DNA of 51,702 bases from contig JBJFEZ010000020.1 of NCBI GenBank assembly GCA_051891195.1, forward strand, positions 1 through 51,702, read 5' to 3'. Under the pieces are notes generated by a model. That model had not been told where the DNA came from. It saw only the letters and a list, made by a program, of their open reading frames with translations, and searched no databases. The first letter of the stretch is position 1. Each line of letters starts with the position of its first letter. Source of the DNA: Clostridia bacterium. GTDB taxonomy: Bacteria; Bacillota; Clostridia; TANB77; CAG-508. The translations under genes and the position numbers were made by a program. Below are positions 1-6,435 of this stretch, one piece after another.

Positions 1-274
1 AACAGAATACGGAACAGAGAAGGCTTACTGGCTCGCTTCTCGCGGTGTCGTAGCTAATTCTGACTTTGCTGGCTTAGGCCCGGGAGCTGTTTACTCAGGA
101 GGTGGGATGACCTGTGCGGTTAGTTGCGACGGCGGCTTTGACTCTGACGGCGACTCTGACGTTGGCAGTTTGGCGGTGCGCCCCGTAGTTTGTCTAGACC
201 CTGCAGTCACAGTTGACCAAATACAAAAAATAGCAGACCAACCAGATTCTTGGGGAACTATAGAAGAAGAGTAG
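1..274 (+). CDS. DGR target protein, C-terminal fragment (5' end outside window); CLec-type C-terminal domain
   Basis: Frame +2 is open from base 2 to TAG at 272-274: TEYGTEKAYWLASRGVVANSDFAGLGPGAVYSGGGMTCAVSCDGGFDSDGDSDVGSLAVRPVVCLDPAVTVDQIQKIADQPDSWGTIEEE*. It contains the VR. YWLxSR...AVRPVV is typical of DGR target CLec domains. Absent from the ORF track because no start codon lies in the window. Confidence 0.9.
   Translation, partial: TEYGTEKAYWLASRGVVANSDFAGLGPGAVYSGGGMTCAVSCDGGFDSDGDSDVGSLAVRPVVCLDPAVTVDQIQKIADQPDSWGTIEEE
29..188 (+). repeat. DGR variable region (VR)
   Basis: Ungapped 160-nt match to 1193-1352 (offset 1164). By hand count there are 23 mismatches, 22 at TR adenines (15 A>G, 7 A>T, 0 A>C) and one T>A at 76/1240. 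Ends in the GC-rich GGCGGTGCGCCCC. Confidence 0.97.
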
Positions 275-293
275 AATTGTTGATAGGTATTTA

Positions 294-318
294 CCAAGAA
301 GGCCTTTGGTCTTCTTGG
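294..318 (+). terminator. Stem-loop downstream of DGR target gene (terminator and/or DGR cis hairpin)
   Basis: CCAAGAAGGCC-TTT-GGTCTTCTTGG: 11-bp stem with one G-U pair; a T-run follows a few nt later. Confidence 0.6.
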
Positions 319-360
319 ATGAAATTTTTTCAAAGTATAAAAATTATAAAAGGATAACAA

Positions 361-813
361 ATGGGAATTGTAAATATAGTAAAAAATATAAAACAAATTC
401 ACTCAAAAGACATTGTTTTAATTCGCATAGGTAAATTTTTTTATACATATGGGAAAGATGCATATATTTTATCATATTTGTTTCAATATAAATTAATGAA
501 TATTGAAGGTGAAAACGTATACTCTTGCGCTTTCCCTGCACAGTCTTTTTCAAAGGTAATTGCCCACATAGAAAATAAAAGAATAAATTATATAGTGGTA
601 GATAAAAGAAACAATTATGATATTGAAGAAAAATCTGACAATAAAAATTTAAATACATATGATGAACAGTTTGAAAAAGCAAAAAAATATGTGAACTTAA
701 AAATTAGAATAGAAAATATATCATATTATTTATTAAAACATATATACGATGAAAAGACTATACAAAAAATAAGTCAAATGGAAGAAATTATTAATGAAAC
801 AAGAAAAGTTTAA
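361..813 (+). CDS. MutS domain I-like DGR accessory protein (MSL-type)
   Basis: KQIHSKDIVLIRIGKFFYTYGKDAYILS...CAFP resembles the MutS N-terminal mismatch-binding domain (K...D.LL.FR.GDFYE.F..DA...GVP). Lies between VR and avd; RBS AAGGA. Confidence 0.75.
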   Translation: MGIVNIVKNIKQIHSKDIVLIRIGKFFYTYGKDAYILSYLFQYKLMNIEGENVYSCAFPAQSFSKVIAHIENKRINYIVVDKRNNYDIEEKSDNKNLNTYDEQFEKAKKYVNLKIRIENISYYLLKHIYDEKTIQKISQMEEIINETRKV

Positions 814-1144
814 AATTATACAATTTATTAGAGAATTTATTCTATATATAGATAACAATTTAGATAATTTCCCTAAAAAAGATATTGAACTAAAAAACAA
901 AATAAGAAATATAAGTTATGAATTACTGGAATTATCATATAAAGCTAATGTAACTTCTAACATAGAATATAAAAGAGACTTACTAGAAGAAATAATTGCA
1001 AAAATAAAAGTTATAGACTTTTTACTAAACCTATGTTATGAAAAACAAATTATAAACAGTAAAAGATATGTAAAATTTGGAGAAAAAATGGATGATATTT
1101 TAAAATATACATTGGGTTGGATAAAATCTATAAACCAAACTTAA
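794..1144 (+). CDS. avd: DGR accessory variability determinant (Avd-like four-helix bundle)
   Basis: 116 aa, predicted helical, with FPK near the N-terminus and C-terminal ...LGWIKS. Immediately upstream of the TR, the canonical avd position. Confidence 0.85.
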   Translation: MKQEKFKIIQFIREFILYIDNNLDNFPKKDIELKNKIRNISYELLELSYKANVTSNIEYKRDLLEEIIAKIKVIDFLLNLCYEKQIINSKRYVKFGEKMDDILKYTLGWIKSINQT

Positions 1145-1192
1145 AGTGTGTAAAAAATTTTCCCTCACATTATTCATAGGGCTTAGTTGTAT

Positions 1193-1352
1193 AGGCTCGC
1201 TTCTCGCGGTGTCGTAGCTAATTCTGACAATGCTAACTTTGGCCCGGGAGCTGTTAACTCAGAAGATGGGATGACCAATGCGAATAGTTGCAACAACGAC
1301 TTTAACTCTAACGGCAACTCTAACGATGACAGTTTGGCGGTGCGCCCCGTAG
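1193..1352 (+). repeat. DGR template repeat (TR)
   Basis: Adenine-rich copy of the VR with 12 AAY codons in the VR frame and 40 adenines, of which 22 differ in the VR. Followed by an IMH*-like diverged tail (CTTCTATAAAC versus VR TTTGTCTAGAC). Confidence 0.97.
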
Positions 1353-1513
1353 CTTCTATAAACTGTGGTTATGTAATTATAAATTGCATAAGAGATAATA
1401 TAGAAACAAACTAATGTCCTTTTGCTAAAAAGCAATAAACAAAAATAGATAAATTTATTTGTTAGTAATAAATTTAAAATTTGTGAAAGGGAGTAAATTT
1501 TAGAACTATTTTT

Positions 1514-1537
1514 AAGTAGCTAATTGCTACTTTTTTT
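1514..1537 (+). terminator. Intrinsic terminator ending the avd-TR transcript
   Basis: AAGTAGC-TAATT-GCTACTT followed by a T-run on +; abuts the RT stop codon. Confidence 0.7.
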
Positions 1538-2513
1538 AATTATTTATAAATTTATTTAAACTTTGTTGGACTTTAGAAGGACATAAATGTTTATAACACG
1601 CCATACTACTTAAAATGCTACATAAATTTATATAACCACTTTTATATTGAAAAAGTTTTTTATTTAGTTTTCTACTAACATTACGGTATCTAACATATTT
1701 TCCTTTTTTATTTCTTCCTAAAAAAGTAAAATTATTATTACTAGTATAAATTCTGCTTTTAGAGTTTAGTGTTAATTTTTCTTTACTTAAAAATTTTTGA
1801 ATTTCTAGTAAACAATATTTTAAATATGATTTTGATTGATGAAACAATAAAAAATCATCTTGATATCTAACATAATATTTAATTTTTAATTGTTCTTTAA
1901 CAAAATGGTCAAAATCATTTAAATAAAAAATGGCTAATACTTGACTTGTCATATTGCCAATACTTAAGCCTGCTTCATCACTATCTATAATAGAAAAAAC
2001 AATATTTAGAGCATCTTTGTCTTTTATTTTTCTCTTTAATTTTTGCTTTAAGATATTATGATCAATACTAGCAAAAAATTTGCTTATATCACATTTTAAA
2101 ATATAATACTTTTCATATTTTGTTCTACATATCTTATGATAGTTTGTAGCCAACTCTACTCCCTTTTTTGTTCCCATATTTTTTCTGCTTGCAACATTTA
2201 CATCTACTAAGCAAGGCAACAAAGCTGGATACAAAATATGTCTACTAACTAAATGATTAATAATTTTATCATGCATAGTTTGGCTAACAATACGCCTTTG
2301 CTTAGGCTCATAAATAGTAAAAACATTATAAGGTCCAACAACATAATTTTTATTTTTTAAAGTAGAATAAACCCTAGAAACATAAATACATTTATATTCT
2401 CTATAATTACGTACTTTTCTTTTATTTCTGGTATTTTTACAAATTTCATCAAATGCATCAAATATATTTTCAAGACAATAAATATTTTCATATAGATTAC
2501 TTTTTCTTTTCAT
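1536..2513 (-). CDS. DGR reverse transcriptase
   Basis: 325 aa. Motifs EPKQRRI, LKCDISKFF, GLSIGNMTSQ (DGR-type IGxxxSQ), YVRYQDD and FLG. No maturase or endonuclease domain. Confidence 0.95.
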   Translation of the reverse strand: MKRKSNLYENIYCLENIFDAFDEICKNTRNKRKVRNYREYKCIYVSRVYSTLKNKNYVVGPYNVFTIYEPKQRRIVSQTMHDKIINHLVSRHILYPALLPCLVDVNVASRKNMGTKKGVELATNYHKICRTKYEKYYILKCDISKFFASIDHNILKQKLKRKIKDKDALNIVFSIIDSDEAGLSIGNMTSQVLAIFYLNDFDHFVKEQLKIKYYVRYQDDFLLFHQSKSYLKYCLLEIQKFLSKEKLTLNSKSRIYTSNNNFTFLGRNKKGKYVRYRNVSRKLNKKLFQYKSGYINLCSILSSMACYKHLCPSKVQQSLNKFINN

Positions 2514-2525
2514 TTTATCACCACT

Positions 2526-2942
2526 TTAGTTAATAATTTTATATAATTTCTGTTGTATTGTATATAAAAACTCATATGCTTGGCTAATAGAAAGATCATT
2601 AATATTTGTTTTTAAAATTTTGTCAACAATACATTTTAAGTCCTCGTTGTGAATATAGTCATTAGATGTCAAAGAACCGTCATTTTCTAAAGAGACAATT
2701 TCAATATTATAAGGGGTATCTTTTAAAAGATTTAAATATTTTTGCAAAGAGTTTATAGGAAATCCACACTTTACTATGGTTTCATTTAAATTTCCTAATT
2801 TTAAATTTAAATAATTAGACATAACTTTAGCATCATTATCAATAAAAATAAAAAATAGTCCTACTTTAAATAGATAAAATGTGTTTGGTTTATAATTAGA
2901 ACTGCTCTTTAACTCTTGATATTTTTTATATATTTTACTCAT
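2526..2942 (-). CDS. Mini-MutS-like protein (domain I plus MutS C-terminal-like helix pair)
   Basis: YQELK...YLFKVGLFFIFIDNDA...KCGFP resembles MutS domain I. C-terminal ILKTNINDLSISQAYEFLYTIQQKL resembles the MutS C-terminal oligomerisation motif. Start set at ATG 2942 after GGAGG. Confidence 0.75.
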   Translation of the reverse strand: MSKIYKKYQELKSSSNYKPNTFYLFKVGLFFIFIDNDAKVMSNYLNLKLGNLNETIVKCGFPINSLQKYLNLLKDTPYNIEIVSLENDGSLTSNDYIHNEDLKCIVDKILKTNINDLSISQAYEFLYTIQQKLYKIIN

Positions 2943-3048
2943 ATGTACCTCCATTTTTTATTATAAAAAATTTTGAAAAGATTCTGTAAACATTGATACA
3001 AGCTTTAATAAATTTATATATTTTACATATATTGGTATACTATATGTA

Positions 3049-3077
3049 AGTATACTATACTAAAAAACAACTGTCAA
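3049..3077 (-). promoter_or_regulatory. Sigma-A promoter for the mini-MutS/RT operon
   Basis: Minus strand TTGACA (3077-3072), 17-nt spacer, TATACT (3054-3049). Confidence 0.7.
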
Positions 3078-3160
3078 GAGATAATCTTATATGTTAATAT
3101 ACTATATATATGTATAGCAAATACAATAAAAAATAAGTATCTTACAATGTGGAGGAAATT

Positions 3161-3388
3161 ATGAAAAATTTTGGAAGAGTAGATATGACTTTAGATGAAT
3201 ATTTAAAAAAACATAAGATAAGTAAGTCTAGTTTAACAAGAAAAACAGAATTGCAGTATAGCCAAATTTTAAGGTATTGTAGAAATGAAGCTCAAAAAAT
3301 AGATTTATCAATATTAGCTAAACTATGTACGGTTTTAGAATGTGACATAACCGACATATTAAAATTAACAAGAGGGAAACTAGAATAA
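3161..3388 (+). CDS. Cro/CI (XRE)-type HTH transcriptional regulator
   Basis: LDEYLKKHKISKSSLTRKTELQYSQILRYC...IDLSILAKLCTVLECDITDIL; GGAGG precedes ATG 3161. Confidence 0.85.
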   Translation: MKNFGRVDMTLDEYLKKHKISKSSLTRKTELQYSQILRYCRNEAQKIDLSILAKLCTVLECDITDILKLTRGKLE

Positions 3389-3519
3389 TTTTTATCAAAT
3401 ATAGCAGGAGTTTAATCAACTGCTATTTTTATTTCATTTTTAGTATAGAAATATTGTAAAATTTGTAAAAATCAAGTATAATAGATAATGTATTTTAATG
3501 TAAAGGGAATGATTTATAA

Positions 3520-4536
3520 ATGGAAGAAAATAAAAAACGTATGCTAACAGGGGATAGACCTACAGGAAGACTACATATTGGTCATTATTTTGGATCTTTA
3601 AAAACAAGAGTAGAAATGCAAAATAGTGGCAAGTATGACCCATATATTTTAATTGCAGATGTTCAAGCATTAACAGATAATTTTACAAACCCAGAAAAAG
3701 TAAGGGAAAATGTAAAACAGGTTATATTAGACTATTTATCTGTAGGAATTGACCCTGAAAAAACAACCATATATATTCAGTCAATGGTACCAGAAACAGC
3801 TGAACTAACAGTATTTTATTCAAATTTGGTAACTATTGCAAGACTAGAAAGAAACCCAACTGTAAAAACAGAAATAGCTCAAAAAAAAGAAGTGTTTGGA
3901 GAAAGTGTTACATATGGTTTTTTGGGATACCCAGTAAGCCAAGCAGCAGATATTACAGTAGTAGATGGTGCCTATGTACCTGTTGGGGAAGACCAATTAC
4001 CTTTAATAGAACAATGCAGAGAAATAGTAAGAAAATTTAATAGTATATATGGAGAAGTATTAACAGAACCTGAACCTGTACTTTCAACAACAAAAAGAAT
4101 TAAAGGATTAGACGGGAATGATAAAATGGGCAAATCTTTAGGAAATGCTATTTATTTATCAGATACTGAAGAAGAAATAAATAAAAAGGTAATGAGCGCA
4201 GTAACAGACCCATCTAGAATAAAAAAGGACGACTTAGGAAATCCTGAAGTTTGTATGGTTGCATATTATCACAATTTATTTAGCAAAGAGGACGAAGTAA
4301 AAACAGTTTGCGAAGAATGCAAAGCAGGCAAAAGGGGCTGTGTTGCTTGTAAAAAACAATTAGCATATAACATAAATGAATTTTTAAACCCAATACGTGA
4401 AAAAAGAAAATATTATGAAGAAAGACCTGAACTAGTAGAAAATATACTAAAAGAGGGAACTGAAAAAACTAGAAAAACAGCTAAAGAAACTATGAAAAAA
4501 GTAAAAAAAGCAATGAAACTAGATTATTTTGAATAG
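3520..4536 (+). CDS. trpS: Tryptophanyl-tRNA synthetase
   Basis: TGDRPTGRLHIGH, VPVGEDQ, KMGKS. Confidence 0.97.
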   Translation: MEENKKRMLTGDRPTGRLHIGHYFGSLKTRVEMQNSGKYDPYILIADVQALTDNFTNPEKVRENVKQVILDYLSVGIDPEKTTIYIQSMVPETAELTVFYSNLVTIARLERNPTVKTEIAQKKEVFGESVTYGFLGYPVSQAADITVVDGAYVPVGEDQLPLIEQCREIVRKFNSIYGEVLTEPEPVLSTTKRIKGLDGNDKMGKSLGNAIYLSDTEEEINKKVMSAVTDPSRIKKDDLGNPEVCMVAYYHNLFSKEDEVKTVCEECKAGKRGCVACKKQLAYNINEFLNPIREKRKYYEERPELVENILKEGTEKTRKTAKETMKKVKKAMKLDYFE

Positions 4537-4550
4537 AGGTAAAACACATT

Positions 4551-6435
<1,885 letters not shown>

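Follow-up and report, generated by a model that had tools for sequence, protein, structure and literature searches.

Two paralogous stand-alone MutS domain I proteins in one DGR cassette of a Clostridia bacterium

Why does a single DGR carry two different small proteins resembling domain I of MutS? The question is raised by the first genes of contig JBJFEZ010000020.1, from a gut member of the Clostridia with a small genome; the whole stretch of 51,702 nucleotides that was analysed is called the window. The main unsolved step of DGRs is the entry of mutagenised cDNA into the target gene and its survival of repair. According to the sources cited below, host MutS cuts DGR output several-fold, and mismatch repair must be disabled for DGRs in E. 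coli. MutS-like (MSL) proteins are obvious natural candidates for helping cDNA changes survive repair.

Organisation of the cassette

The following features were located in the window:

2..274, + strand: 3' end of the target gene of the DGR, truncated where the contig begins (the open frame runs off the window start); VR at about 30-188
294..318, + strand: hairpin after the target-gene stop, read from the sequence; 11-pair stem including one G-T pair, 3-nt loop
361..813, + strand: MSL-A, 150 aa, Pfam MutS_I
794..1144, + strand: avd, 116 aa, Pfam bAvd; its first 20 nt overlap MSL-A
1194..1363, + strand: template repeat (TR), a direct repeat with VR with adenine-biased differences
1514..1532, + strand: terminator-like hairpin with T run from the terminator scan, after the TR unit and abutting the stop codon of the reverse transcriptase gene
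1536..2513, - strand: DGR reverse transcriptase (RT), 325 aa, Pfam RVT_1 (E 1e-16)
2526..2942, - strand: MSL-B, 138 aa; opens the RT group and lies 12 nt ahead of the start of RT
3049..3077, - strand: the region's best promoter-like site (TTGACA, 17 nt, TATACT; 11 of 12 matches), about 100 nt upstream of MSL-B
3149..3388, + strand: Cro/C1-type HTH gene divergent from MSL-B (Pfam HTH_26, E 3.7e-16), a possible regulator and candidate member of the element

The DGR is complete, with RT, TR, a VR with adenine-specific differences and avd. VR (30-199) and TR (1194-1363) match at 85%, and 23 of their 26 differences fall on TR adenines; the non-adenine differences, read from the printed alignment, are at 76, 189 and 192. 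The avd product was matched by Pfam bAvd (E 5.6e-12, 46.6 bits, cut-off 40) and by NCBIfam DivGenRetAVD with E 3.4e-12, under that model's cut-off of 80. HRDC gave no match in the six cassette ORFs scanned with Pfam. Hydrolase_3, DUF3793, Csm1_B and Binary_toxB_3 scored below their own Pfam cut-offs and were set aside as chance. MSL-A and MSL-B lie on opposite strands, each grouped with other cassette genes and both at most 2.6 kb from TR and RT. A preliminary description of this DNA had placed one MSL in each of two gene groups, which agrees with this arrangement.

Identity of the two proteins and their altered motif

Both proteins were assigned to MutS domain I by Pfam MutS_I (cut-off 20.6 bits), MSL-A over residues 4-76 (E 5.7e-09, 36.6 bits) and MSL-B over residues 9-91 (E 4.4e-09, 37 bits); no other Pfam family passed its cut-off in either one. 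The NCBIfam MutS models matched only at positions 3-84, far under their cut-offs. For MSL-B the 138 aa are counted from an ATG behind GGAGG, while the longest ORF begins at 2954. AlphaFold2 models of MSL-A and MSL-B reached a pLDDT of 91.4 and 93.5. With these models all Foldseek matches listed from the PDB were domain I of MutS or MSH proteins, over about 82-86 residues at an rmsd of about 2 Å (best E 2.9e-05 for MSL-A and 1.7e-05 for MSL-B). In the MSL-A model domain I occupies about residues 1-92 and is followed by two long helices (100-126 and 131-145).

Homologue searches yielded 171 sequences for MSL-A and 91 for MSL-B. The family profile of MSL-B matched E. coli MutS (E 8.6e-05), that of MSL-A matched MSH6 and MutS weakly (E 0.03-0.4), and single-sequence phmmer searches against the PDB returned no MutS for either protein. 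Hence, the assignment of MSL-A rests on Pfam, on the comparison of the A and B profiles and on the fold. With hhalign the alignment to the 870-aa MutS of the host was confined to domain I (residues 7-87 and 15-86). The idea that the C-terminal helices correspond to the C-terminal tail of MutS was rejected at the sequence level, as only domain I was aligned. Connector, core/clamp and ABC ATPase domains are absent from both, unlike in MutS mismatch repair proteins. These results bear out the preliminary description, which had read both genes as MutS domain I lacking clamp and ATPase domains and had proposed the Foldseek comparison.

Small proteins of 112-283 aa homologous to MutS domain I, with a pI of 7.2 ± 1.7 and accompanied by avd but not by HRDC, were described as MSL by Wu 2018 (PMC5758913) for 16 of 372 DGRs. 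MSL-A and MSL-B, with 150 and 138 aa, in a cassette holding avd and without HRDC in the six ORFs scanned, both belong to this known accessory class. Their pI values are 9.08 and 8.39, compared with averages of 8.96 over 121 homologues of A and 7.11 over 91 homologues of B; near-neutral charge describes the class but does not define it. The MSLs of Wu and the Bacteroides Msl (10.1101/2024.11.15.621889) are likewise small stand-alone domain I proteins in DGR cassettes with avd. No RT fusion was found in the best 150 of 1495 matches of the B profile to 1.84 billion representatives; all were 65-237 aa long.

The Phe-X-Glu motif of MutS reads GKFFY in MSL-A and GLFFI in MSL-B, with Glu replaced by Tyr and Ile, respectively. 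On E. coli MutS the MSL-B profile places G28, F30 and I32 on the Gly, F36 and position 38, and an alignment of the two MSL profiles with one another keeps this register. The Phe is conserved in 100% of the A homologues (n=121) and 99% of the B homologues (n=91), whereas the position of the Glu is taken by Tyr, His or Gln in A and by Ile in 95% of B. Translations, profile alignments and conservation thus agree with the earlier statement that Phe is kept and Glu replaced. Domain I of MutS and MSH proteins (PF01624; E. coli MutS 1e3m, E38 mutants 1wb9, 1wbb and 1wbd) has the same fold and the same Gly-x-Phe register, but the MSLs differ by the missing Glu38, connector, core, clamp and ATPase and by C-terminal helices not alignable to the host MutS. 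Like the MSLs, MSH2 and MSH3 lack the full motif in domain I, yet they sit on DNA next to their partner (PMC3848065). According to that source they are parts of full-length ATPase heterodimers, whereas the MSLs are separate proteins that retain the Phe.

MSL-A and MSL-B share 29% identity over 66 aa, and hhalign aligned 69 columns of domain I only; the C-terminal halves could not be aligned. They are old paralogues with unrelated C-terminal helices. Each MSL consists of MutS domain I and a family-specific two-helix C-terminal hairpin. Calculated for 11 locus pairs, dN/dS was 0.07-0.49 for A and 0.19-0.58 for B; the two B pairs with the least saturation had 0.19 and 0.23.

Occurrence of A and B in related loci and in a second RT lineage

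Relatives of the RT numbered 222 in genome contigs, the best 80 of them at 60-75% identity. The presence of A and B was counted in 61 assessable loci of related RTs. Both occurred together in 25; 34 had only A, one had only B and one had neither. A accompanies B in 25 of 26 loci, and abuts avd in 59 of 59. MSL-B directly precedes RT in 20 of 21 same-strand cases, with avd intervening in the 21st, and is convergent to RT in five further loci. On the RT tree the presence of B requires at least 13 changes.

Recurrence of the pair with related RTs, named in the preliminary description as a check, was found. Its further suggestion of a dedicated pair acting as a heteromer lost ground. An obligate heteromer mimicking the asymmetric domain I pair of a MutS dimer would fit the presence of two diverged paralogues of domain I in a single element and the near-constant company of A where B occurs. 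However, A lacks B in 34 of 61 loci, B comes and goes on the RT tree, B-type genes are elsewhere the sole MSL (31 of 54 contexts, see below) and the likeness between the two proteins is limited to the 69 domain I columns, so we regard such a heteromer as very improbable. A co-fold of MSL-A and MSL-B scored 0.00, which counts neither for nor against binding. A being constant, B facultative and the B-type elsewhere the sole MSL, the pair represents two accessory modules that recurrently occur together, not an obligate duo.

The 31 contexts come from a survey of 54 B-type genes, and in them B-type is the sole MSL beside a different RT lineage. The order MSL-avd-RT, with B-type as sole MSL of this second lineage, was found in 23 of 54. 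In L089 and L090, where B-type is likewise the sole MSL, the RT is 32-36% identical. B-type genes of both RT lineages mix on the B tree, on which the label 'with lineage-1 RT' requires 14 changes; starred branches force no fewer than seven of these. Furthermore, of the five genomes with a locus that lacks B, four contain a B-type gene at another place.

This distribution, with the usual home of B-type in the other RT lineage, its scatter on the RT tree and the intermixed B tree, would also be expected if MSL-B were a passenger from recombination between two co-resident DGR lineages that adds nothing to the element. Against a passenger stand the intact frames, the dN/dS values including the 0.19 and 0.23 of the least saturated pairs, the conserved place directly before RT, and the GGAGG site and best promoter-like site preceding MSL-B. 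We consider this explanation quite unlikely.

A role within the reverse-transcription particle was considered as well: as binding partners of Avd, RT or the RNA-cDNA hybrid, the MSLs might influence the synthesis or the hand-over of cDNA and not a DNA:DNA heteroduplex. The coupling of MSL and avd in all A loci and in the 23 colinear B-avd-RT loci points in this direction, as do the basic MSL-A, three DGR RTs with a MutS_I-like C-terminal extension reported in PMC5758913, and one locus with two MSL-avd modules (L107: MSL-B, bAvd and RT on one strand, bAvd and MSL-A on the other). MSL-B in the window has no avd of its own, however, and B is convergent to RT in five loci; a role in the particle appears unlikely.

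In general, the element is a chromosomal MSL-containing DGR ('architecture D' of Wu) with two paralogous MSLs, A constant and B facultative, and the B-type has moved between lineages several times; of this identity and history we are highly confident. MSL-A is the MSL that this RT lineage carries constantly, probably made together with Avd. MSL-B is a facultative second MSL, which in the window opens the RT group, and the B-type is normally the sole MSL of a second, co-resident lineage.

Single MSLs are a known helper class; the doubled layout recurs in relatives and is undescribed in the literature searched, where no two MSLs in one DGR were found. In PMC5758913 the layouts TG-MSL-AVD-TR-RT (six times) and TG-AVD-TR-RT-MSL (four times) are given, so the positions before avd and next to RT are both recorded. 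Passages of its main text mention a DGR in which avd is doubled and another in which HRDC is doubled, whereas a doubled MSL is not among the cases given there, and the string MSL-AVD-TR-RT-MSL occurs 0 times in its supplementary file, in which the layout was identified for 13 of 16 MSL rows. Unlike the MSL DGRs described there, the present cassette combines two diverged MSL paralogues.

Possible function of the MSL modules

Shielding of the heteroduplex from host repair appears to be the most plausible function of the MSLs. Phe36 of MutS stacks on the mismatched base, and Glu38 is listed among the residues linking DNA binding to the ATPase (PMC3848065). The invariant Phe of each MSL would stack at positions of the adenine-mutagenised cDNA:VR duplex that are weak or mismatched. 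Lacking Glu38 and the ATPase, an MSL would be unable to license repair or to call in MutL. Its presence on the substrate, or its competition with host MutS, would then allow more of the changes derived from the cDNA to persist. Host MutS and MutL would be blunted by this binding without repair signalling. Each of the two proteins would act on its own or add to the effect of the other, for instance by serving different mismatch types or steps, and no obligate heteromer would be involved. To the explanation as a whole, two MSL modules together with shielding of mismatches from repair, we assign a probability of roughly 45%.

Several observations favour this explanation, among them the identity, dN/dS values and linkage of the MSL genes given above and the three RTs with a MutS_I-like extension. 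The host has the machinery to be blunted, a full MutS reading GDFYEMF and a MutL, and in both MSL families the Phe is invariant and the Glu is replaced. VR mutagenesis by a Bacteroides DGR rose about 5-10 fold, as an all-or-nothing effect, once mutS of the host was deleted (10.1101/2024.11.15.621889), and an engineered E. coli DGR was built with the dominant-negative MutL E32K (10.64898/2026.07.21.739853). MutL E32K, used in engineered DGRs and in oligonucleotide recombineering in E. coli, may be a functional analogue of the MSLs, with mismatch repair blunted locally or globally so that cDNA-borne changes survive; the proteins are unrelated. Other observations speak against the mechanism. The two constitutively active DGRs in the Bacteroides preprint are those without Msl, so MSL is unneeded for high activity there. 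Exchange of Glu38 for Gln abolishes the discrimination of matched and mismatched duplexes by MutS (PMC3848065); a domain I without Glu38 may fail to distinguish mismatches from normal DNA, and 'mismatch binding' may therefore be too specific a term. The frequent loss and gain of B fits a dispensable or redundant role, and the basic pI of MSL-A together with the avd coupling fits an RT-Avd-RNA particle equally well. The literature searched contained no measured DNA binding, retrohoming effect or repair effect for any MSL.

The MSLs might instead be positive integration cofactors, which would recognise and stabilise the heavily mismatched or branched cDNA:VR intermediate and, without any involvement of host mismatch repair, aid its copying or resolution into the target. 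The domain I fold and the invariant Phe of both proteins would suit this task; some steps of VR retrohoming still lack a known protein, and the engineered E. coli systems needed an added annealing protein. However, with MSL in only 16 of the 372 DGRs of PMC5758913 integration generally needs none, and Pfam found no nuclease, annealing or ATPase domain. We rate a cofactor role as rather unlikely.

A further reading, which we hold to be unlikely, takes MSL and Avd as a conserved two-protein module with non-redundant A- and B-types, one working with Avd and RT on nascent cDNA, the other guarding the cDNA:VR heteroduplex against host MutS. If so, MSL doubling would tune how much written diversity survives repair, and these DGRs would carry a natural, locus-targeted anti-mismatch-repair device.

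The clade offers a natural experiment, as the number of MSL types, one or two, differs between close relatives, and either type also occurs alone in another lineage. Thus, a few deletions or swaps could show the role of the MSLs and the difference between A and B. A portable small anti-repair helper would aid directed evolution based on DGRs.

Concerning expression, no RNA run was among the matches listed in a search of sequencing runs, the best DNA run containing 0.17 of the words. The hairpin at 1514..1532 is the sole terminator-like site in 1-3600; shuffled sequences average 0.9 such sites, and therefore it is weak evidence on its own. The scan did not flag the hairpin at 294..318, where the T run begins 7 nt past the stem. 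Promoter-like sites were not in excess overall (30 against 26.0 in shuffles, sd 5.1). A strong relative of the HTH gene (119-129 bits) adjoins MSL-B in six loci (L010, L015, L083, L085, L093 and L094), and in L145 such a relative lies 483 nt from MSL-B.

Two MutS domain I families in one DGR

A complete diversity-generating retroelement (DGR) is located at the left end of the window, which is one whole contig (C20) of a genome of 1.13 Mb in 61 contigs (92% complete, ~28% G+C).

Features of the DGR (window coordinates, strand)
2-274 (+): target gene 3' end, with the variable repeat (VR) at ~30-188
361-813 (+): MSL-A, Pfam MutS_I
794-1144 (+): avd, Pfam bAvd (E 5.6e-12)
1194-1363 (+): template repeat (TR), repeat of the VR
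1514-1532: terminator-like hairpin
1536-2513 (-): reverse transcriptase (RT), RVT_1 (E 1e-16)
2526-2942 (-): MSL-B, Pfam MutS_I
3149-3388 (+): HTH_26 gene, divergent from MSL-B

VR and TR are 85% identical across 170 nt, and TR adenines account for 23 of the 26 differences. The DGR looks chromosomal, because its neighbours are what we take, from translations read by eye, to be housekeeping genes (tryptophanyl-tRNA synthetase, Obg and isoleucyl-tRNA synthetase).

The preliminary description of two MutS domain I genes in this DGR was correct in every checkable point. MSL-A (150 aa) and MSL-B (138 aa) passed Pfam MutS_I with 36.6 and 37 bits (cut-off 20.6), and no other Pfam family exceeded its own cut-off for either protein. 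From alignments containing 60 and 63 homologous sequences, AlphaFold2 predicted for both an alpha/beta domain of ~90 residues and, after it, two long helices (pLDDT 91.4 for MSL-A and 93.5 for MSL-B). The Foldseek matches listed for both models were all MutS, MSH2, MSH3 or MSH6 chains, aligned over ~82-86 residues with an rmsd of ~2 Å. The family-B profile found E. coli MutS (E 8.6e-05) and matched F30 to Phe36 and I32 to position 38; the profiles of A and B aligned with 97% probability in identical register. Both families keep the Phe without variation. At the Glu position Tyr, His or Gln is found in family A and Ile in 95% of family B, and the host's full-length MutS carries GDFYEMF. Exactly three MutS_I matches occur in the genome, MSL-A, MSL-B and the full-length MutS; MutL is also encoded. 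Both genes are members of the known MutS-like (MSL) accessory class.

Within domain I, MSL-A and MSL-B are 29% identical across 66 residues; outside it they show no similarity, and the C-terminal half of neither aligned with the host MutS. Family HMMs separated them cleanly, with at least 91 bits for members of the own family and at most 46 bits for the other. A conserved motif of its own marks the C-terminal part of each family: N96-L97-N98 with Y100 for A, L117-S118-I119-S120 for B. The database homologues (171 for A, 91 for B) are all small. The B profile matched 1495 representatives at E ≤ 0.001, and the best 150 of these span 65-237 aa, with no RT fusion among them. A and B are therefore two distinct families rather than a single gene in duplicate.

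Distribution and exchange of the two modules

For the RT lineage of the window (lineage 1), 222 relatives were found in one-genome-per-species contigs. The best 80 (60-75% identity) were fetched; 19 loci with short flanks were dropped and 61 allowed both MSLs to be judged. A and B occurred together in 25 of the 61 loci, A without B in 34, B without A in one and neither in one; the events counted are not independent, because close duplicates are among the loci (the B protein is identical in L083 and L085, and L052 differs little from L076). In 20 of the 25 loci with both genes the layout was that of the window, with the A-avd-TR group pointing towards the RT-B group; the other five were colinear for A, avd, TR and RT with B convergent. 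Without exception avd adjoins A (59/59 loci), and RT adjoins B in 20 of 21 same-strand cases. On a quick tree of 58 RTs, in which 19 of 55 inner branches are open, the presence of B requires at least 13 changes, at least four of them forced by well-supported branches; the window was added to this tree and L083, L084, L085 and L087 were excluded because their RT frames are split or short. The two-family doubled MSL layout is a recurrent variant. The lineage of the window has an A-avd-TR module, joined in roughly 40% of the species sampled by a B-type gene heading the RT group.

Five genomes holding B-less loci (G001-G005, hosts of L044, L041, L053, L068 and L079; 1.2-1.7 Mb) contain two to three DGR-type RTs each, which is a high DGR load given their size. 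Supply of a B-type MSL in trans is conceivable for B-less loci, since four of these five genomes hold a B-type gene elsewhere. In addition to the full MutS, each contains two to four small ORFs with a MutS_I match.

A survey of 120 further genomes from this bacterial family detected 54 B-type genes (≥89 bits) in 46 of them. In 23 cases MSL-B, avd and an RT of a second lineage (lineage 2, usual order MSL-avd-RT), 32-36% identical to the window RT, follow in one direction with no A-type gene in view. Seven further genes lie near a lineage-2 RT in other arrangements and one directly before it. Six belong to two-MSL elements with a lineage-1 RT, several from species also in the RT-centred sample, and one has a lineage-1 RT at a locus whose A side lies beyond the sequence in view. 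The remainder comprises seven units of an HTH gene followed by B, whose only RT is distant, eight genes alone in view and one with a distant RT only. The idea that the pair acts as one is thus weakened, both by the 34 loci with A alone and by the B-type genes without A beside lineage-2 RTs. On distribution, an obligate A-B heteromer is unlikely.

At one lineage-2 locus from another genome of the family (L089), MSL-B, bAvd (E 4.2e-20) and an RT 36% identical to the window RT mutually overlap. The neighbours in L089 314-7153 are presumably tryptophanyl-tRNA synthetase and Obg (ORFs read by eye). This neighbourhood is the same as at window 1536-6435; in L089 an alpha-amylase family gene lies between the DGR, which has the other RT lineage, and these two genes.

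Locus L107 (4002-7055) has two MSL-avd modules in one DGR: one strand carries MSL-B, bAvd and a lineage-1 RT, the other bAvd and MSL-A. Its B protein is the same as that of L080. L107 looks like a fuller form, in which B's own avd is retained. The recurrent unit is an MSL gene of type A or B directly before avd. In a tree of 85 B-type proteins, neighbours of lineage-1 and lineage-2 RTs were intermixed, with 14 label changes required, at least seven of them forced by starred branches; many forks are open, as the alignment is short (139 columns).

For 11 locus pairs (ten for avd, as L023/L057 gave no dS estimate) dN/dS was 0.19-0.58 for B, 0.07-0.49 for A, 0.01-0.39 for avd and 0.02-0.15 for RT, with dS saturated in most pairs and differences slightly inflated by stop-to-stop frames. 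The two least saturated pairs gave 0.19 and 0.23 for B. Both MSLs appear to be constrained, yet to evolve faster than the RT. Exchange of accessory modules between otherwise close elements is suggested by loci L016 and L028, because their RTs are 93% identical but their A proteins only 51% (Avd 66%, MSL-B 87%).

Reported layouts and possible function

Wu et al. 2018 (PMC5758913) defined the MSL class and recorded it in 16 of 372 DGRs, in each case together with avd. For the 13 of 16 MSL rows with layouts located in the supplementary table, these are TG-MSL-AVD-TR-RT (six), TG-AVD-TR-RT-MSL (four), TG-TR-MSL-AVD-RT (two) and TG-TR-MSL-RT-AVD (one), with no double-MSL string in that file. There the MSL is placed before avd or beside the RT, whereas both positions are filled in the window DGR. 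Doubled accessory genes in the parts of the text consulted are avd and HRDC only, and FR889100 and FR888067, the accessions of the matching CAG:508 and CAG:343 scaffolds, are absent from the supplementary file (PMC5758913). A 2021 review mentions MSL in one sentence (PMC8632793). In the full-text literature searched on MSL or MutS with DGRs, apart from subscription journals and bioRxiv supplements, we found no test of an MSL, no two MSLs in one element and no description of the two-family doubled layout. This layout is not surprising in kind and offers a clean natural comparison for what MSL proteins do.

Identity and history of the two MSL modules are well supported. As to mechanism, the best-supported inference is shielding of the cDNA:VR duplex from host repair, and it builds on published findings. 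In MutS, Phe36 stacks against the mismatched base; Glu38 provides the specific hydrogen bond and is among the residues coupling DNA binding to ATPase, and its exchange for Gln abolishes discrimination (PMC3848065). Host MutS reduces DGR output by a factor of 5-10, with an all-or-nothing pattern (10.1101/2024.11.15.621889), and dominant-negative MutL was added so that an engineered DGR works in E. coli (10.64898/2026.07.21.739853). A stand-alone domain I could insert its Phe but not signal, and would sit on the duplex or compete with MutS; in both cases the new bases would be protected. Against shielding counts that Msl is missing from the constitutively active DGRs of Bacteroides (10.1101/2024.11.15.621889). 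Loss of the Glu may remove mismatch specificity altogether, which also counts against shielding. A role of the MSL in the RT-Avd particle fits its tight genetic coupling to avd equally well.

A second target gene and flanking elements

A second target-gene end was found in the same genome on contig C51 (locus L008, minus strand, 4097-4203 and 5639-5783). In the stretch matching window 30-145, 24 of 32 differences between its VR and the TR are at adenines. At about window-equivalent 146 this VR is interrupted by an insertion with two transposase-like ORFs (4240-4761 and 4902-5609), which we take, from reading the ORFs, to be IS3-type. Past the VR the sequence matches window 188-252 and then diverges; this is therefore a remote DGR target gene, now split by the insertion.

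In the window, a hairpin of 11 pairs and a 3-nt loop (294-318) lies 20 nt past the target gene stop, ahead of MSL-A. It could terminate the target gene or be the kind of stem-loop required beside the VR in some DGRs. Upstream of MSL-B, two direct repeats of 28 nt (3027-3054, 3089-3116; 82% alike) flank the best promoter-like site and adjoin the divergent HTH_26 gene; repeats and gene may form an operator/regulator pair. In the B-type clade of the window a strong HTH relative occurs with eight of nine proteins irrespective of RT lineage, and in seven other loci an HTH_26-like gene directly precedes and overlaps a B-type MSL.
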